Assembly: GCA_951406725.2 (NCBI GenBank)
Contig: OX597841.1
Location: forward strand, 14,198,001-14,262,000
Length of the DNA stretch: 64,000 nucleotides
Source: Octopus vulgaris
Taxonomy: Eukaryota
Direction of reading: 5' to 3'
Below are positions 8,055 through 63,090 of this stretch, piece after piece. Each line of letters begins with the position of its first letter. The stretch's first letter is position 1. Both the position numbers and the translations under genes were made by a program. The notes beneath the pieces were generated by a model. That model did not search any database. It saw only the letters and a program-made list of their open reading frames with translations, and was not told the DNA's origin.

Positions 8055-8224
8055 GTGCCGCCCCTGCCAAGTCCACTGACTCTGACACGAAGCCGTCGAC
8101 ACAGAAGCTGGAGGAGGACAGCAACAGCTCCGCAGCGACAAACGAGTCGGCAGGACCCAAAGATTCTGATCAATCCCAGAATGCACAAAAACAGGAAGTA
8201 CCGAAAGATACACAGTCCACACAG
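8055..8224 (+). CDS. Gene 1 coding exon A (first visible; upstream exons not found)
   Basis: Acceptor tcctgtctttccag|GT and donor CAG|gtatgg. Phase-1 entry reads (G)AAPAKSTDSDTKPSTQKLEEDSN...DTQSTQ; phase-0 exit matches the next exon. Confidence 0.8.
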
Positions 8225-8292
8225 GTATGGTCATAAGGTCATCGTGTTGCTACAAGACTTTTTGTTTTGTGTTTTTTTAAATTACTGTGCCC

Positions 8293-8337
<45 letters not shown>

Positions 8338-8403
8338 GGTCCCGGGTTGATTCGGGGTTAACCACAGTAAGTAAGGTACTCAATACATAGCAGAGTAAAA
8401 TTA

Positions 8404-8529
8404 ATTTATTATATAGAAGGAGCTTCTACAGGACTAGTACTGTTTCATTCAAGAGAAATCTTCAGGAAGCTTCCTGAAGATTTCTCTTGAATGAAACAGT
8501 ACTAGTCCTGTAGAAGCTCCTTCTATATA

Positions 8530-8535
<6 letters not shown>
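8404..8535. repeat. Perfect 132-bp palindrome (66-bp arms, no spacer)
   Basis: Centred on aagctt at 8467-8472. Arms are exact reverse complements; flanked by (TA)n. Confidence 0.95.
8468..8518 (+). ncRNA. Minimal type-I hammerhead ribozyme (mirror copy on minus strand at 8421-8471)
   Basis: agcttc-CTGAAGA-t ttc tctt gaa t-GAAA-cag tactagtc ctg-TA-gaagct. 6-bp stem I, CUGANGA/GAAA core, short stem II, stem III with palindromic loop, GUA cleavage triplet. Confidence 0.7.
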
Positions 8536-8559
<24 letters not shown>

Positions 8560-8564
<5 letters not shown>

Positions 8565-8731
8565 AAATTTAAAGGACTGACCACTAAAAGTGGACGGTCA
8601 ACATGCTAGACATAGACGTCAAATCGCTATTTTCCACAAAGTACATATTCTTTGTGGAAAATAGCGATTTGACGTCTATATCTAGCATGTTGACCGTCCA
8701 CTTTTAGTGGTCAGTCCTTTAAATTTTGTAT
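8560..8731. repeat. Foldback inverted repeat (82-bp arms, 8-nt spacer, 1 mismatch)
   Basis: atacaaaattt...ccacaaag / ctttgtgg...aaattttgtat; starts at a (TA)n tract. Confidence 0.93.
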
Positions 8732-9192
8732 GTAAAAATATTTTAATCTTCAGATTTTTTTAATATGCTGGGCCACTGGTTTTAATTGATTAATATCAAT
8801 TTCTACCCTTATTAAATTTTAAATTTATATATATATATATATATAAATAAATAAATAAACTTTTGTATCTCTGCTGTAAGGCTTCATTTCCATATGCCGT
8901 CAGCTTAATTCAATTCGTCCTTAGTCGAAAGACGCCTGTTGTTATGTCCTGTTAATATTTTTATTGTATTTATATTTGTGTAATATTTCCCGCTAGCCAT
9001 AACGGCAATTCTGAAAACTTTTGGGTGCGAATTTTACATAAGTAGAAGCTTTTTTTTAACAAATTTTACCCTGGAAATCACCTGTGTAAATTACACAGGT
9101 GTGCAAATTCCATGGGTTTTTACAGTAATTATTCCAGTTGTCTGTAGTCTAGTGTAGGCATGGACAGCCTGTTTCGAAGAAGGTTCATCTGG

Positions 9193-9408
9193 CGGGTTGC
9201 AGGTTGCCCACGGGTTGCAGGTTGCCCTCGGCTTGCAGGTTGCCCTTGGCTTGCAGGTTGCCCACGGCTTGGAGGTTGCCCTCGGCTTGCAGGTTGCCCA
9301 CGGGTTGCAGGTTGCCCATGGGTTGCATGTTGCCCTCGGCTTGCAGGTTGCCCTTGGCTTGCAGGTTGCCCTCAGCTTGCAGGTTGCCCTCGGGTTGCAG
9401 GTTGCCCG
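9193..9408. repeat. 18-bp minisatellite x12
   Basis: Unit ~(c/t)gg(c/g)ttgcaggttgccc(a/t); translates as RVAGCP repeats in the ORF track. Confidence 0.95.
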
Positions 9409-9548
9409 TGACTGGCTACGTGTGCTGTATGGGTGTCAGTGTTTTGTTATGTTGCAGTGTGATGTCAGTTTGTGCATTGTTGTGTGTGGTGCGGTATCGA
9501 TGCTGTCCTTATCTGATCCCTTCTCTTCTCTTCCGTATCCCCTTGCAG

Positions 9549-9675
9549 ACTCCGACGGAAGCTGCAGCTGAAAGTGACGTCGATGCGGAGTTTTCAAACT
9601 GGAGGAAAGTCTGCTGCGAAGAATTTGAATTGGAGGCTGAGAATATTGAGAAACTGATCAACCGAGACATTGCTG
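9549..9675 (+). CDS. Gene 1 coding exon B
   Basis: Acceptor cccttgcag|ACT, donor GCTG|gtgagg. Reads TPTEAAAESDVDAEFSNWRKVCCEEFELEAENIEKLINRDIA; phase 0 in, phase 1 out. Confidence 0.85.
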
Positions 9676-9929
9676 GTGAGGGTTCAATTTCACCTTGTGT
9701 GCTGCTTCACTTCTTCACGCATCCTGACACATTTTGATATCTTCACACCTTTACTTCACCATTTTGCCTTTTCACCTTTTCGTGTTTTCAAAACTTCTCA
9801 TTTTAACAATTTTGTATATTCTTGCCTTTGTATCTTCACACTTTCTCAACTCCTCATTTGAACGACGTCAGATTTTCGTAATTTAACATCTTAATATCTT
9901 CACAACCTACCCTTCTTCAAAACCCTCTC

Positions 9930-10480
9930 TTCTTCATGGCCCTCTCGCCTTCACAACCTTCTCATCATCATGGCCCTCTCATCTTCCCAGCCCTCTTGTC
10001 TTCACAACCCTCTTGTTTTCACAACCCTCTCATCTTCCCAGTCCTCTCGTCTTCATGGCCCTCGCATCTTCCCGGCCCTCGTGTCTTCACAACCTTCTCA
10101 TCATCATGGCCCTCTTGTCTTCACAACCCTCTCGTCTTCCCAGCCCTCTCGTCTCCCTGGCCCTCGCATCTTCCCGGCCCTCGTGTCTTCACAACCCTCT
10201 CGTCTTCCCAGCCCTCTCGTCTCCCTGGCCCTCGCATCTTCCCGGCCCTCGTGTCTTCATAACCCTCTCGTCTTCCCAGCCCTCTCGTCTCCCTGGCCCT
10301 CGCATCTTCCCGGCCCTCTCGTCTTCCCAGCCCTCTCGTCTCCCTGGCCCTCGCATCTTCCCGGCCCTCGTGTCTTCACAACCCTCTCGTCTTCATGGCC
10401 CTCTTGTCTTCCCAGCCCTTGCGTCTTCCTGGCCCTTGCGTCTTCCCAGCCCTCTCGTCTTCCCAGCCCTCTCGTCTTCA
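9930..10480. repeat. 17-bp pyrimidine-rich minisatellite with higher-order structure
   Basis: Variants of cttcccagccctctcgt. Confidence 0.9.
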
Positions 10481-10686
10481 AGACATTGCATCTAAACAGT
10501 GTCATGTCTTCAAGACATCCACATCTTCACAGCACCACGTTATCACCAACTTTATATCTTCATATATCATCTAAACATTGTATACATGTGTTTATACATC
10601 TGTGTATGCTTGTGTGTATACACCTGTATTTGTGTATCTGTTTTTATATATAACTAACAAAGTGTCTATTTGTATCTTTTGAACAG

Positions 10687-11603
10687 AGGAATGGACAGCC
10701 GAAGAATGGGAGAAACTCCAGAAAGACTGTGCCACGTACGGCTTTTGGTTTGCCATCACTGACTACATCTACTCGTGTGAGGACTACACTTTTGTTAAGA
10801 TCTTGCCAAGAATATTTGAGAATCTCTTCTTAGATCCTCCCGAAAACATCTCTAACTTCTTGTCTCGAATACGGCGCAGGTTGAAACGAGGTGGTGTCGA
10901 TTGGATAAAGGAGACATTCTTGGAGCCGCAGAAGAATCTCGGCCCCCTCTGCGACAAGCTGGGCATCACCGTTGAACTGTTACAGAAGGGCGAGAGCCCG
11001 AATGTGCCAGCGTCGCAACTGTCGAAGGCTCTCGCCCTTGAATTGCTCTATTATAAGAAAAGGCATCCAACCATGAGCTATGCTGACCTCGCTGGTTGGA
11101 TCAAGTTGATTTTCAATTTCCCAACACTACCCGATCAGCGTGACCTCCACTTCCAACTGGAGGGCATCCATCGACTGAAGAACAAGCTGCGGGGCCACAA
11201 GACCGAAGTTGTTAAAATGCTGAAGGAGCCATTTGAACCTGTGTTCACCTCGTCCGACATCGATGTGGAGACCGACGGGGCGGCCACCACTGGCAGCTCC
11301 GACGATGCCACCGGCGGCGCGGCCAGCTGCAGCACCGCAGGGACTGGGTCTGACAGCAACCTCACCGTGCCGGCTACGACCAGGGAGGAGGAGGAGGAGG
11401 AAGAGGAGGAGGATTTAGAAGAAGAGGAAGACGCGGAGGAAGAGGAGGAGTTGGAAGAAGAAGAAGAGGAGGAGGAAGAGGAGGATTTCTTTGTTGAACG
11501 CAACCAGGATGGCAAGTGTCGGGTGTCGTCGTCTGACAACCCCCCTGAAGGGTCCTCGGACGACAGCTGCAGTGTCCCGACCTTGGAGAAGAAGAGAGCC
11601 GAG
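10687..11603 (+). CDS. Gene 1 coding exon C: helical folded region with HTH-like segment, then poly-Glu tract
   Basis: Acceptor tttgaacag|AG, donor GAG|gtaagt. Phase 1 in, 305 open codons EWTAEEWEKLQKDCATYGFWFAITDY...KKRAE, phase 0 out. Overlaps track ORF 10803..11633. Confidence 0.9.
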
Positions 11604-12106
11604 GTAAGTTCCTTATTCCTTGCTTTTGTATAAGTTGCACATTGTGAAGGTTGATGGCTTAGTGGTTAGGGGCGTTTAGTTCACAATCACAAGGTCATGA
11701 GTTCAATTCCTGGAAAGTCATTGTCTCCTTAGGCAAGACACTTTATTTCATGTTGCCCCAGTCCACTCAGCTGTCAAAAATCAGTTGTACCTGTCATTCA
11801 AAAAGGGCCCAGCTTTGTCACCTCTTGTGTCACACTGAATCTCCCTGAGAACCATGTTAAGGGTACACGTGTCTGTGGAGTACTCGACCACTTGCATGTT
11901 AACTTCATGAGCAGGCTGTTTGGTTAATCCAATCAACTGGAAGGACCTTAGAGAATCTTACTTGAAAATCAAGGAAGGGTTAGCAAGATGAAGGGCATCG
12001 AGCTGTAAAAAGGGGCCTCAATAATGTATTCTTCTAACCCAATGGTTCTCATCAAGGGTCCATATAAAATTTTCTTGTTAAAATTTATCTGCAGTAAATT
12101 GGTTGG

Positions 12107-12630
12107 GTGCAGGAGTGGCTGTGTGGTAAGTAGCTTGTTTACCAACCACATGGCTCCGGGTTCAGTCCCACTGCGTGGCATCTTGGGCAAGTGTCTTCTG
12201 CTATAGCCTCGGGCTGACCAAAGCCTTGTGAGTGGATCTGATAGCTGGAAACTGAAAGAAGCCTGTCATATATATATATGTGTGTGTGTGTTTGTGTGTC
12301 TGTTTGTCCCCTGCTTCATCGCGTGACAACCGATGCTGGTATGTTTACGTCCCCATAACGTAGCGGTTTGACAAGAGAGACCGATAGAATAAGTAACTAG
12401 ACTTACAAAGAATAAGTCCTGGGGTCGATTTGCTCGACTAAAAGAATAAGTCCTGGGGTCGATTTGCTCGACTAAAAGAATAAGTCCTGGGGTCGATTTG
12501 CTCGACTAAAAGAATAAGTCCTGGGGTCGATTTGCTCGACCAAAAGAATAAGTCCTGGGGTCGATTTGGTCGACTAAAGACGATGCTCCAGCATGGCCAC
12601 AGTCAAAGTGACTGAAACAAATAAAAGAAT
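12107..12630 (+). mobile_element. SINE family A with internal 34-bp x5 expansion
   Basis: Family A sequence; the unit aataagtcctggggtcgatttgctcgactaaaag repeats at 12411-12578. Confidence 0.9.
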
Positions 12631-13275
12631 GCCCACACAATACAGAATATTTTAACAATTGTCTTTTTATACAATTCCTAATAAAAATAAAATAGGGTTT
12701 TTTAAACATGGAATAGTTATGGGGGCCCACCTGAGTAAAACAGAAATCAAAGGGGTCCATAGATAAGAAGGGTGGGGCCGAGAAACTATGTTGTAACTCA
12801 TGGGAAACTGATTGTGAAAATGTACAAAGCACCATCCGAATCGTGGCCGATGCCAGTGCCACCTCGACTGGCTTCCGTGCCGGTGGCATGTAAAATGCAC
12901 CAATCTGACCGTGGCCGTTGCCAGCCTCGCCTGGCCCCTGTGCAGGTGGCACGTAAAAAGCACCCACTACACTCACGGAGTGGTTGGCGTTAGGAAGGGC
13001 ATCCAGCTGTAGAAACACCGCCAGATCAGACTGGAGCCTGGTGCAGCCTCCTGGCTTCCCAGATCCCCGGTCGAACCGTCCAACCCATGCTAGCATGGAG
13101 AACGGACGTTAAACGATGATGATGATGTATAAAAGCTTGTTGGGTGTGATTTTGAGGGAAGTTTGACTGCTATGTTTGAGCTGGTTGTTCAACCATGTTG
13201 AGGGATTTTCTCTATTATTCCATTGTTGTTGCATTTTATTAAAATTTGTGCTTTTTTTTTTTTTGCTTTTTTCAG

Positions 13276-16200
13276 AGTCCAAGGTCAGCAAAGGACACAA
13301 TGCCCCAAGATGACGAGAACACCAATATATCAGAGCCGTCAAAGACACGGTTTGACAAAGAGGATTCCGTCGATTCTGTCAAACTGCACGACAGCACAGC
13401 CTCTGAGTCTGACCACAAACCTGCTGGACATGTGAGAGCTGATAAACTTGCTGAAGACTCCAAGAGTAGCTGTGACACTGCTGCTTCTGAGACCACCCTG
13501 ACATCGCAGACCAGGAAGAGAAACCATTCCGAAACAGACACAGAGTCGAGCGAGGAGAAGCAGAAGGGTCCCACAAACCTGGATCCGGTCACAAAGAAAC
13601 TCTGTCCACAACAAACTGAAAATGCAAAGAGTGAGGCTCCAGCTGGCCTGAAGTCTGGAACTGATGCCAAAGAGGCTAAAAAACCAATAACTGACCAAGG
13701 AATCGACTCTCATTCAAAGCAAAGCGTTAAAAGTTCTTTGTTTGATGATGCCACTACTGCTGATTTGACGAAGGGATCTGTCGGAATTGGTGAGAAGGGG
13801 GAGAAGAAAGGTGAGGTTAAGGTTACAAGTGGGACAGCGGAGAGTCCTTTGTCATCAAAGGAGAAACCCCAAGAGAAAGGGAAGACGACCGAGGCAGTGA
13901 CGAAAGATACAAAGACGGCTGCCGGAGAATCAGATTCTGGGAAAACGGATAGAGTTAAGAAGGCGCCGGAAGTTGAAGGACGGAAGTCCAAGTCTGCCGA
14001 GAAGCTGCAAGAGGTCTGCGAGAAGTTGCGAGCAGCACGAGGAGGAGGAGGAGGAGGAAGTGGCAGTGATGTGGATCTGTCTGTAGGTCGTAAAGGAAAG
14101 AAGGACGAAGATGAAAAGGTTGTTCCGGATAAGAAAAAGGCTGAACCTGAGGCTGGTGCATCGAGTAAGAGGGAAGCAGATTGCTCCAAGGCATCGGAAC
14201 CATCCAAGGAACTTCCAGCCGATGACAGTGGAAAGAAGAGTCTGCAGAAAGCTGAACCCAAGCAGAAGAGCTCAGATCTGAAGGCGAAACCTGCTGACAA
14301 TGTTCCAGACTCCAAGAGCAAGGTAGAAAATTCTTCTGACCCTGTTAAACCATCTTTGAAGGCATCAACTGTTACTGCTGAGTCTAAGTCTGTTGAGAAC
14401 CAATCCAAAGAAGAGGGGAAAAAATCTTTGAGCAAGCCATGTGATGATAGCACAAGGACCTCTCAACTAAATCAAGGACCAACAACTCCCAAACAACCCC
14501 TTAAAGAGGACACAGAGAAGTCGTCAGATAAGGCAGTTTTAAAATCTGTTCCCGATAAGATTTCCAAGTCGGCCGATTCCAAATCTTCTGGCGATAGTTT
14601 GAAAGTTTCCATTCCGAAAGCGGATGCCTCAAAGTCTGGGAAGGACTCTTCAGCAAGCGGTCAGTCAACCGTGACTGGGAAATCAGAACCAAAGAAAGAA
14701 AGCAACAAGATGTCGGACGTCCAGACAGATTCTGCTGACAAGAAGAAGAATTTGTCCTCGAAAACTAAACTTGATACAGAAACAACCAAAGTCGAGTCTG
14801 TGAAGACAGAGAAACCAAAAGATTCTGTTCGTGGGGAGGGTACGGCAAAAGATGAGGTGGCTTCTAAACTGCCTGGAAAGGGGACAGGTGTAACGAAAGA
14901 AGAAGGATCGCGAGGAGTTAAGTCTACTGAAGAGGATCTGAAGTCGAAAGTAACGTCTGACCCTAAAGTTGTAGACAAAGCCAAGAATGACCAAACTGGT
15001 GCGAAGAAAATGTCAACCGAGCCCCAGAAGTTGAAGGATTCTGGCATTTCAAAAATGGGGAGCAGTTTGAAACCTGGTGCTGATAAACCTTCTGACAGCA
15101 AGGCTGAAGGAATTTTGGCCAAGGCTGACAGTTCAAAGGGCCTCTCTAAGGCATCTGAAAAGAAGAACAATGAATCTGGAGATCAGAGTCGTGGAAGTTC
15201 GAAAGAAGGAACCCCTCTGAAGCCTGTCAGTGGTGAGTCATCGTCCGTCGGAGCGGAAAAACCGTCTTCGGATCTGAAGAAAGAATCTGCTAAAAGTGAT
15301 GCTGCGACAAAGAAACCTGTGTCTGCTGAAGACGGAGAGAAGAAATCAGAGAAGACCAATGCTGTACCGGAAAGTTCTAAGACTCCTTTCTCTGTGAAAA
15401 GTAAGGAATCGACCAAAGATGTATCAAAGGCAGAGTTAAAGGAATCCAGTTCAGCATCTGTCTCTTCGAAAACTGCTGATGATGGTAGCACCGGCACAAA
15501 GAAACCTGTTGCAGAACAACCTACGGCGGGAGAAATATCATCGAAATCTAAGGAAGGGCCTTCGAAGTTGGCTTCAAGAGAAAGTGTTCTAGCAGAGGCT
15601 GGTTCCATGCAGGATAAAACACTGACAAAGCTGACTACAACGTTAATTAAAGAAAGCAGTCCTTCAGAGAAATCCATCATTAAGCCAACTGAAAGTGCAT
15701 CCAAGATCTCATCTGGGTCACAGAGTAAACCTTCGCCAGAGGCCCCCGCTAAATCTGCAGTGGAGGAGTCTCTGCCCAAATCCACTTCATTATCAAAGAA
15801 AGAATTATCAGAACCAAATCAAAAGCCTTCATCAGAAGCCCAAGCAAGTTCTTTGTCAAAGTCACCGGCCAAATCCTCGTCAGAGGCCTCAGCAAAGTCC
15901 TCGTTGAAGGTCCCAACTAAGACCTCGTTGGAGGCCCCAGCCAAGACCTCATCGGAAGCCCCAACCAAGACCTCGTCGGAGGCCCCAGCCAAGACCTCGT
16001 CGAAAGCCCCAGCCAAGACCTCGTCGGAGGCCCTAGCCAAGACCTCGTCGGAGGCCCCAGCCAAGACCTCTTCAGAGGCCCCAGCAAAGTCCTCGTCAAA
16101 AGTCCCTACCAAGCCCCTCTCAGAAGACTCAGCCAAGTCCCCTTCAGAAACCTCTGTCAAAAAATCCTCATCTGAGACCCCAGCCAAGTCATCATCAGAA

Positions 16201-16749
16201 ACCCCTGCCAAATCTTTGTCAGATGCCCCAACTAAGTCTTCGTCGGAGACCCCTAGTAAAACCTCGTCAGAAGCGAAGTCCTCATCAGAACCTCAGTCAA
16301 CAAACACACCACCAACGCAGACCAAACCTGCTGCGAACAGCAACAGCAGCAACAACAGCAGCACTGCCGCGGACCCTAACAAAACAGCTAAACCAGCAGA
16401 AGATAGCAGCAGCAAACAGAAAAAGGACGTCCATTTACCAAAGAGCCAATCAGGTGCCACAACAACAACAGCAGCGACCAAGGTCGGTGCCGCGCAGGAC
16501 ATCAAGAAAGAAGGCGACAACAAAGTTACAGTCATCAAAATGGCGTCGGCGACCTCTCACTCGAACGTGGACTGCTCCAGCGGCAAGAGTACTCCGAAGA
16601 GTGTCGTGTCGCACTCGGCCGAGGCTAAGCGAGACTCTTTGAAGTCGGCGGACACGAGTCGGAGCAAAACCACCTCTAGAGCAGTAGCCGAGGAGAGTCG
16701 ATCGGCAAAGCACGAGGGCCAAACCTCGGTTATCACGCCTACCAAAAAG
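13276..16749 (+). CDS. Gene 1 coding exon D: 3,474-bp exon encoding a K/S/E-rich disordered region
   Basis: Strong polypyrimidine acceptor ttttttcag|AGT, donor AAG|gtgaga. 1,158 open codons (track ORF 13246..16806); phase 0 in and out. Confidence 0.92.
15860..16290 (+). repeat. Coding 24-bp (8-aa) tandem repeat
   Basis: PAKTSSEA-type units inside gene 1 exon D. Confidence 0.9.
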
Positions 16750-16900
16750 GTGAGAGATTTTTGTGATGTTGTTGTTGGTGGTGGTGGTGGTGGTGGTGGT
16801 GTTTAACCCTGGGTCACATTGCTGGCTTTGTGCGTTAGTTATCAAAAGCCTTAGTCGTAAATTGTGGAGTTGCAGATGGTAGGGTGGTGGCAGCAGCAGC

Positions 16901-20339: not shown

Positions 20340-20456
20340 AATTAATTATATATACCTTAATTGGTATATATAAATATTTTAATCTTCGGATTCTTTTTTA
20401 ATATGCTAGACCACTGGTCTTAATTGATAAGTATCAATTTCTACCCTTAATTAATT

Positions 20457-20495
<39 letters not shown>

Positions 20496-25933: not shown

Positions 25934-26294
25934 AAAATACATACATACTTACACACAAACATACATACATACACTCATACACATATATAGCTATATGTGT
26001 GTGTACATTTATGCATTACTATACACGTGTTTCAGTAAGCCAGCAGCACATTTCCTCAGTATTTCAGCAAAAAATTTCACAGTTGTGGTGTGTCATTAAA
26101 TACTCACATAGAGATGGTACCATAAATCCAACTTCCTTCATCGGGGCGGAAAACTGACAAACGGTGCCACCAGTGTTTGCTCCCAAAGGAAGCTTGACTT
26201 ATGGTAATATATCCATGTGACTATTCACCAGTTGCATACCCATGACTTTGCACATTCCATCTGTATATATATATATATATACACACACATTCCA

Positions 26295-40133: not shown

Positions 40134-40559
40134 ACCGTGAGCTATCACTGTATTTCTAATGATATATATATATTACTAAATGAATCGCTGCAGTCGAGTG
40201 TCCATCACTGATGAAACCAAGAAAGGTCGAAACCCCATGATTTTGTGGTGTTGGGGCTGGAGGTTACAGAGATTTATCTCCCCACCAATCTTATAAACAG
40301 AAAGGCATTGTTCACCAAAAGTCTCTCCCTTATTCTGTCCACTGCAGTAAAGCTTGTTCAAATTGAATTAACCGTGTTTAAGTGGGGATAATTATTATCT
40401 CTCAGCATTTAATATTAGCTTTGTTGCTCATAAATAAATTATGTTGAATTCATGACTGGGAATTGGATACGCAAATGGATTTATATGGAGGCCTAAGTAA
40501 AGGTTAACTGTTATAGGATCTCATTCGGAAGAATAGGAACTTTTCAATGTGCACACATA

Positions 40560-62008: not shown

Positions 62009-63090
62009 AAGAAAGAGAGACATAGATGGATAGATAGACAAATAGATAGAGAGAGAGAGAGAGAGAGATGGATAGATAGATTAATAGATAGATAGATAGA
62101 TACATAGATAAACATAGATAGATAGATAGATAGATAAACATAGATAGATAGATAGATAGATAGATGGCACTTACATAGTGTACTTATCGGTTCAGATCAT
62201 CTGTGAACTAAACCCTTCATATCATATATATATATATATGTGTGTGTGTATGTATATATAATTGTTAAAGGGGGCAACAGACGTTAAGGCAAGGCAAACA
62301 TCTCAAGCCATATACATTATTATTATAATTGGAAAATAATTCAAAGTCTTACAGCTGTTTCTGGGATATCCCAGAGTACGGGATATTCCATCATCAGAGA
62401 CAAATAGGAAAAAAACAGGTTAAAAAATAGGAATGGTATATATTAATGAAATGATGACACAGAGGAGTAACGGAATAAGGAGATGAAGAGAGAGAAGAAA
62501 AAAGAATATATATATATACATACGCTATATATATATGGCAATAATGATGATGTTGATAAGGGTATATTAATTTATATCATTTGAAAAAGGGGGGGACAAC
62601 GGGGGATGAGGGTACAAGAACAATGATCATGGCGTTGGTGATGATGATGACAATATATATATATATGTGTGTGTATATATATGTATACTCTTTTACTCTT
62701 TTACTTGTTTCAGTCATTTGACTGTGGCCATGCTGGAGCACCGCCTTTTTTTAGTCGAGCAAATCGACCCCAGTTCTTATTCTTTGTAAGCCCAGTACTT
62801 ATTCTATCGGTCTCTTTTGCCGAACCGCTAAGTGACAGGGACGTAAAACACACCAGCATCGGTTGTCAAGCAATGCTAGGGGGACAAACACAGACACACA
62901 AACACACATATATATATATATACATATATACGACAGGCTTCTTTCAGTTTCTGTCTTCCAAATCCACTCACAAGTCATTGGCCGGCCCGGGGCTATAGCA
63001 GAAGACACTTGCCCAAGATGCCACGCAGTGGGACTGAACCCGGAACCATGTGGTTGGTTAGCAAGCTACTTACCACACAACCACTCCTGC
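60809..63090. mobile_element. SINE family A copies
   Basis: 60809-61275 (+) and 62686-63090 (-). Confidence 0.85.
62346..62401 (-). ncRNA. Minimal type-I hammerhead ribozyme (Penelope-like element type)
   Basis: Minus strand reads gtct-CTGATGA-tggaatatccc gtactct gggatatccca-GAAA-cagctg-TA-agac. 4-bp stem I, 10/11-bp stem II, palindromic stem III (acagctgt), GUA triplet. Confidence 0.85.

Follow-up and report, generated by a model that had tools for sequence, protein, structure and literature searches.

The minus strand of the window analysed here, a 64-kb stretch of Octopus vulgaris DNA, carries a genuine type I minimal hammerhead motif at 62401–62346. We put at about three in four the probability that this hammerhead lies in a 245-bp copy that is the likely 5'-truncated pseudo-LTR end of a Penelope-like element (PLE) within a TA microsatellite, and that it is a predicted dimer-only cutter. 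The features on which this reading is built are collected in Table 1.

Structure of the hammerhead motif

On the minus strand the motif reads GUCU CUGAUGA, a 29-nt stem II, GAA, ACAGCUGU, A and AGAC, which places the type I core (CUGANGA, GAAA and NUH) around a three-way junction with an open helix I. A sequence-only reading of this DNA had listed all catalytic nucleotides as present, together with a 4-bp stem I, a 10/11-bp stem II and a self-complementary stem III, and its description is borne out in each of these respects. Every core base can be read; stem I pairs 62401–62398 with 62349–62346 (4 bp); stem II pairs 62390–62380 with 62372–62362 at 10 of 11 positions, the mismatch being A.C at 62387/62365; and stem III is the perfect palindrome ACAGCUGU at 62358–62351. 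The cut predicted there between 62350 and 62349 agrees with the position of the GUA triplet. The label "canonical", on the other hand, was too strong, as the pair beside the core is U-A instead of G10.1-C11.1 and the stem III pairing probability in the monomer is 0.00. A G10.1-C11.1 pair is present, but an extra A that directly precedes GAAA separates it from G12. An additional G.U pair in stem II cuts the loop to 5 nt. The two 12-nt palindrome copies that make up stem II are identical at 10 of 12 positions here, and at 11 of 12 with the commonest base of the family at 62379; we infer that the long stem II arose via duplication of a short hairpin. The sequence around the hammerhead is 63% U upstream and 90% AU downstream.

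Table 1 Features of the hammerhead and of the repeat copy that contains it (positions in the window; a dot marks features without strand)
Feature	Position	Strand	Basis
Dispersed high-copy repeat, 245-bp copy lacking its 5' part (likely pseudo-LTR end of a PLE)	62262..62506	-	contig depth, loose ends
AU-rich 3' segment of the repeat	62262..62345	-	fixed 3' end 88 nt past the predicted cut
(TA)n/(TG)n tract at the element 3' end (likely target site)	62221..62261	.	sequence
(TA)n tract where the copy breaks off on its 5' side (likely target site)	62507..62536	.	sequence
Type I minimal hammerhead ribozyme	62346..62401	-	sequence, folding, descriptor script
Stem I 5' arm (GUCU)	62398..62401	-	folding; paired with probability 0.87-0.90 within the 56-mer and 0.34-0.35 within the element as a whole
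Core box C3-A9 (CUGAUGA)	62391..62397	-	sequence; absent from the best 40 of 74 family variant rows
Stem II, two tandem 12-nt palindrome copies (62390-62379, 62373-62362) with 5-nt spacer	62362..62390	-	
Perfect 16-nt palindrome over the stem II 3' arm and core G12/A13	62360..62375	.	
Core box GAA and 8-nt palindrome ACAGCUGU (dimer stem III)	62351..62361	-	
Predicted cut after GUA (A17 = 62350)	62349..62350	-	sequence and standard hammerhead numbering
Stem I 3' arm (AGAC)	62346..62349	-	folding

A truncated copy of an abundant repeat family

Parts of 62262–62500 are matched by 22 public runs from 11 studies and four organisms; no RNA run is named in this listing, and one run guessed to be RNA contains a small share. 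Four of these 22 runs, X1 and X2 (organism A), X4 (B) and X15 (D), were aligned on 62168–62648 at 80% likeness, and the repeat family was found in all four and in all three organisms. The alignments comprise 250 contigs for X1, 3135 for X2, 3082 for X4 and 2700 for X15, most of them 90–95% alike or less; one X1 contig is identical to 62384–62493, and X1 may be the source sample of the window. Summed depth over the ribozyme reaches 0.9–2.6e5 in the three deep runs, compared with 22–70 per listed contig, and the depth ratio corresponds very roughly to 1,700–7,700 copies, an order of magnitude only, since summed depth is no copy number. Family depth drops about ten-fold upstream of 62410, which may reflect divergence rather than truncation.

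Family contig depth begins at 62253–62269 (repeats in 62168–62252 were skipped by the alignment), and loose ends past this left edge in X2 and X4 consist of (TA)n and the same terminal bases as here, so that the 3' end of the family is fixed against TA. On the other side, family sequence continues beyond 62506 in all four runs at the point where the octopus copy becomes (TA)n; the octopus copy is therefore 5'-truncated. As both ends merge into TA, 62262 and 62506 are uncertain by 1–2 nt. Summed depth is 0–208 over 62542–62609 vs. about 1e5 over the ribozyme, and 62515–62648 is flank, since a single X2 contig spans it at a depth of 22 with zero differences. The sequence-only reading had described an insert of ~62260–62650 between TA tracts. 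The TA flanks and the left end stand, but the right end does not, and the insert is 62262–62506. The octopus copy differs privately from the family at 8 or more positions, and no second ribozyme of the same family occurs within the 64-kb window.

Joints were evaluated at 80% likeness, each representing one contig per run. Among the 15 joints listed of 50, four join opposite strands head-to-head, one of which recurs in three runs, and none is a head-to-tail (go-back) joint. Taken together, the loose ends, the opposite-strand joints and the TA flanks show the traits expected of PLEs, namely a 3' end at a constant position, truncation on the 5' side, copies with an inverted 5' part, and TA-rich targets.

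The family also provides a view of which positions in the ribozyme vary. Among the best 40 of 74 variant rows, five fall inside the ribozyme, and these affect the end of stem I, the two loop-closing bases and the first two bases of stem II. At 62346, the terminal G-C pair of stem I becomes G.U in 3–28% of family depth. Position 62379 is A in 94–99%, which makes the loop-closing G.U pair of the octopus copy an A-U pair in most copies, and at 62373 the loop-closing pair is broken in 23–31%. The G-C pair at 62389 is broken in 8–15%, and 62390 is C in 50–66%, so that stem II opens beside the core with either U-A, as in the octopus copy, or C.A. Given that U and C are about equally frequent at 62390 and that no matching change at 62362 is among the rows listed, the data fit a non-essential pair; in the octopus copy 62390 can also pair with the extra A. 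The core bases, the bases of the palindrome and both sides of the A.C mismatch are free of variants among the best 40 of 74 rows; low-share variants at such positions could be among the other 34. Compensatory double changes were likewise absent from the best 40 of the 74 rows. Contigs of X2 and X4 on 62373–62382 reveal a family copy common to organisms A and B in which a 40-base stretch replaces the stem II loop.

Specificity of the motif

How much of this could be a chance match? When the complete window was shuffled 300 times with dinucleotides preserved, each of three feature-based filters found a match in only one shuffle, and a descriptor script identified 62346–62401 as the sole motif in the window that combines a 4-bp stem I, a long stem II and a palindromic stem III. 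The 56-mer has a folding z of −2.87 (1 of 200 shuffles folded equally well). When one core mismatch was allowed, a relaxed scan returned only this motif and a weak candidate at 2583. A loose hammerhead pattern alone is not significant (14 matches vs. a mean of 5), and for a window this rich in microsatellites, shuffled dinucleotides make a less than perfect null model. Rfam returned nothing at gathering score in the whole window, and its 17 matches in 62200–62700 at E up to 10 include no hammerhead family; minimal forms are probably a poor fit to the Rfam hammerhead models. No match was obtained when viral contigs, metagenome contigs and prokaryote genomes were scanned for exact patterns. Against a chance origin stands the retention of the core across thousands of family contigs, and these family data largely refute it; we regard the probability of a mere coincidence as close to nil.

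Folding of the monomer and the dimer

Monomer folding gives pairing probabilities of 0.87–1.0 for stems I and II and of 0.00 for stem III. The 8-bp stem III duplex is calculated at −11.1 kcal/mol, and a dimer with both cores, the 8-bp stem III and swapped stems I is calculated at −39.7 kcal/mol. In folding terms, the palindromic helix III is thus too weak in a monomer and stable in a dimer, which is a trait of PLE minimal hammerheads, and the model predicts that the ribozyme would cut as a dimer only. The ensemble gain of the dimer over two monomers is just −6.7 kcal/mol (about 20 µM); with a dimer this weak, both ribozymes would have to reside on a single RNA in order to pair, a situation found in tandem pseudo-LTRs. 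Given the lack of a predicted monomer stem III and the weakness of the dimer, a lone copy is probably silent, and the copy at 62262–62506, lone in this window with respect to its family, is most likely a silent fossil.

The 16-nt palindrome at 62360–62375 can form a rival, inactive hairpin or duplex, and in the calculations it constitutes a second and stronger dimer interface (−29.6). As a consequence of the two tandem 12-nt palindromes, the arms of stem II can each fold on themselves, burying A9, G12 and A13. The resulting two-hairpin fold has a probability of at most 0.03 in the monomer, so the rival hairpins are relevant at most in the dimer, in which, with stem III formed, the two-hairpin fold is calculated at −40.3 vs. 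−39.7 kcal/mol for the active fold. One could imagine that the long stem II is a built-in switch, retained by the family so that the ribozyme stays inactive until it is refolded by the PLE protein. If true, such a switch would be a sequence-level reason for the protein-assisted cleavage of PLE hammerheads. We consider it quite improbable; the presumed stem II duplication accounts for the inactive dimer fold without invoking any function.

Relation to Penelope-like elements

The minimal hammerheads described from PLE pseudo-LTRs combine a short helix I with a long helix II, carry an additional base following A9 and have a palindrome as helix III; most are solo copies, present in thousands per genome, which are inactive as monomers and weakly active as dimers (PMC4209133). 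The octopus motif resembles them in being type I, in its U-rich and AU-rich flanks, in its dispersed occurrence and possibly in the extra base after A9 (PMC4209133). More specifically, the short helix I (3–5 bp), longer helix II, U-rich 5' flank and AU-rich 3' flank of PLE minimal hammerheads all recur here, with 4 bp in helix I and 11–12 bp in helix II. The published alignment takes in molluscs (PMC4209133), and its row for the Drosophila willistoni (D. willistoni) PLE shares the GUCU/AGAC stem I, CUGAUGAU, an AGCU loop and A17 with the octopus motif (PMC4209133). There are differences as well. Helix II is 3–8 bp in the published minimal hammerheads (PMC4209133), as compared with 11–12 bp in octopus, where the arms of this helix also differ in being palindromic repeats. 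The extra A of octopus lies between C11.1 and G12, where the published descriptor allows "a possible extra N11", and one entry of the alignment reads AGAAA (PMC4209133). A G10.1-C11.1 pair before G12 is described as highly conserved (a trait of the >80% consensus) but not obligatory (PMC4209133). A recoded version of that descriptor retrieves the octopus motif only when the stem II length, one mismatch and the palindromic insert are allowed, and the two supplement files searched of PMC4209133 contain no octopus entry.

Other elements provide further parallels. In the Poseidon element of Anolis carolinensis (PAc), the hammerhead is near the 3' end of the pseudo-LTR and targets are AT-rich, as here (PMC11167929). 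PAc RNA is cut at ORF +26, and its reverse transcription begins between +111 and +118 (PMC11167929); from these positions we compute an insertion end 85–92 nt past the cut, compared with 88 nt in octopus. Its ORF starts in stem II (PMC11167929), unlike in the octopus copy: an ORF of this kind was considered and ruled out here, since translation from either AUG, one within the core and one where stem II begins, would run into a stop after 16–17 codons, and roughly half of the family depth lacks the second AUG. PAc, the one PLE hammerhead tested with its own protein, did not cut until that protein was added, and PAc insertion proceeds without cleavage (PMC11167929). For PLEs, 5' truncation, inverted 5' copies and a microsatellite bias have been described (10.1101/2021.04.23.441226). 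PLEs of the Neptune clade, which are microsatellite-biased and bear hammerheads, share (TA)n targeting, 5' truncation and inverted copies with the octopus family, and as Naiads lack hammerheads (10.1101/2021.04.23.441226), a Neptune or Penelope/Poseidon family is likelier for the octopus repeat.

On the coding side, Pfam detected no reverse transcriptase (RT) or GIY-YIG domain in 159 scanned frames, of 498 frames of at least 55 aa in the window. The scanned set comprised all 56 non-repetitive frames of at least 55 aa beyond 52 kb, 100 of at least 75 aa before that point and three long ORF pieces; five weak matches fell under the cut-offs, none of them to an RT or endonuclease. A search with the upstream frame 62397–62576 (residues 21–60, longer proteins only) had one candidate and none at E up to 10. 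The lack of an RT and GIY-YIG ORF in these searches is expected for a truncated copy. It is only through its anatomy that the family is connected to PLEs, and judged by that anatomy the ribozyme is most likely a minimal hammerhead of a PLE pseudo-LTR. The earlier proposal of a Penelope-associated, dimer-cleaving minimal hammerhead agrees with the published consensus, the behaviour of the family and the folding energies, with cleavage itself being a prediction.

Drawing on known PLE biology, we envisage that a full-length PLE would be transcribed through tandem pseudo-LTRs. Two hammerheads on such a transcript are predicted to pair through ACAGCUGU, build stem III and cut after GUA, probably aided by the element's own protein. 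The endonuclease of the element would nick TA-rich DNA, and reverse transcription would begin on uncut RNA, always from one internal position some 88 nt downstream of where the ribozyme cuts, so that copies would have a common 3' end and carry the ribozyme along. Synthesis may often end early or invert, which would give short copies like 62262–62506.

Alternative origins

The alternative closest to this PLE reading is that the repeat is a non-autonomous PLE derivative, short and ORF-less, that is copied in trans by PLE protein into TA tracts. It predicts the same fixed end, TA target and intact core, and it would be in line with the lack of coding sequence in the 159 frames and in the protein search with the upstream frame; in addition, animal retrozymes have been argued to be non-autonomous PLE derivatives (10.64898/2026.07.22.740005). 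However, the family runs past 62506 in four of four runs, so the full unit exceeds the 245-bp copy, and short 5'-truncated copies are the usual product of autonomous PLEs (10.1101/2021.04.23.441226). For these reasons we consider a trans-copied derivative unlikely. Alternatively, the copy could be an isolated unit from a tandem non-LTR retrozyme, an element that gives rise to small circular RNAs. Animal retrozymes are non-coding, have a type I hammerhead and measure a few hundred bases, as is the case here (PMC7229834; 10.64898/2026.07.22.740005); the low GC content would fit too, the length lies within their range of 150–450 bp, and molluscs carry retrozymes (PMC7229834). Retrozymes nevertheless form tandem arrays with mostly canonical hammerheads, in contrast to the dispersed octopus copy with its minimal ribozyme and TA-abutting end (PMC7229834; 10.64898/2026.07.22.740005). 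The window has no second, head-to-tail copy, the left edge adjoins (TA)n and not another unit, and head-to-tail joints are missing among the 15 listed of 50. Moreover, a 4-bp helix I and long helix II is a minimal architecture and not the canonical 6 bp/4 bp of retrozymes (PMC4209133), which makes this origin very unlikely.

Could the copy instead have been co-opted by the host to cut a host transcript? In favour of this, no core base is missing, and in a short context stems I and II have a high pairing probability. An intact core is the family norm, however, and the copy has accumulated its private changes (at least 8) relative to that family; stem III requires a partner at about 20 µM; and no host gene was placed over the ribozyme, the only mapped gene being at 8–17 kb on the other strand. 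Co-option therefore appears highly improbable, and a truncated PLE end remains our preferred reading of the copy.

Other features of the window

The 64-kb window is rich in microsatellites and repeats, and four of its loci together contain five hammerhead-like motifs; across the genome, hammerheads may thus be very dense. A perfect 132-bp inverted repeat at 8404–8535 has two head-to-head hammerheads of a family unrelated to that of 62346–62401, with cores at 8474 (plus strand) and 8465 (minus strand), a 6-bp stem I, a 3-bp stem II and a 16-nt near-palindromic stem III; both arms (8336–8535) end in TA tracts. The cut-to-end distance in the hammerhead repeat 8336–8465 is 91 nt vs. 88 nt at 62262–62506. 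The inversion in 8404–8535 is centred on the 5' arm of stem I, itself a palindrome, and this suggests that PLE 5' inversions originate from fold-back priming. Adjoining this hammerhead pair is a second long inverted repeat, 8550–8830 (181 nt, 95%), whose distal part recurs at 20361–20468 and which is possibly another inverted PLE end. On the minus strand at 26059, about 200 bp from a TA tract, there is a degenerate minimal hammerhead with intact core boxes, the palindrome ACACGUGU and broken stems I and II. The plus strand at 40208 has a hammerhead-like motif (CUGAUGA ... GGUC GAAAC) with a 4-bp stem I and a damaged cleavage triplet, within a segment of about 430 bp between TA tracts. The motifs in the window are unrelated in sequence in a four-way alignment, which is itself uninformative.

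The plus strand at 8057–16806 contains exons of a POGZ-like gene, which map to 8057–16290 at 83–96% identity. Residues 1–200 of frame 10683–11630 share 99% identity with a protein of Octopus bimaculoides and 74% with a POGZ-named cuttlefish protein. One exon of the gene is very long and of low complexity, with an open frame of 1187 aa and 24-nt repeats close to its end; the cuttlefish relative lacks this exon. Finally, 12102–61032 harbours at least two abundant dispersed repeat families, presumably SINE-like (11 copies of 227 nt and 6 copies of 244 nt), and one such repeat starts just after the flank of the hammerhead copy, at about 62690.

Implications

A full-text literature search found no description of the octopus hammerhead family. 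Lunse et al. reportedly dealt with dimer-cleaving PLE hammerhead variants and may already cover the octopus form. A review states the dimer model, citing Lunse et al. (PMC6765202). PLEs are an abundant, major class in octopus genomes (PMC13282606; PMC8967140); the word hammerhead is absent from the main text of the 2026 O. vulgaris repeat paper, and the giant squid genome paper gives 235 Rfam hammerhead hits (PMC6962438). Since 2014, thousands of PLE-end minimal hammerheads per animal genome have been in print (PMC4209133), and the octopus hammerhead adds an example to a known and ordinary kind of sequence. As such hammerheads are known by the thousand in animals, molluscs included, it is of little importance per se. 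What it contributes is an octopus family whose natural variants are very numerous and extend across species. Mining this variant set could reveal which features are indispensable to a PLE hammerhead, and also what purpose such ribozymes serve, given that PAc inserts without cleavage.
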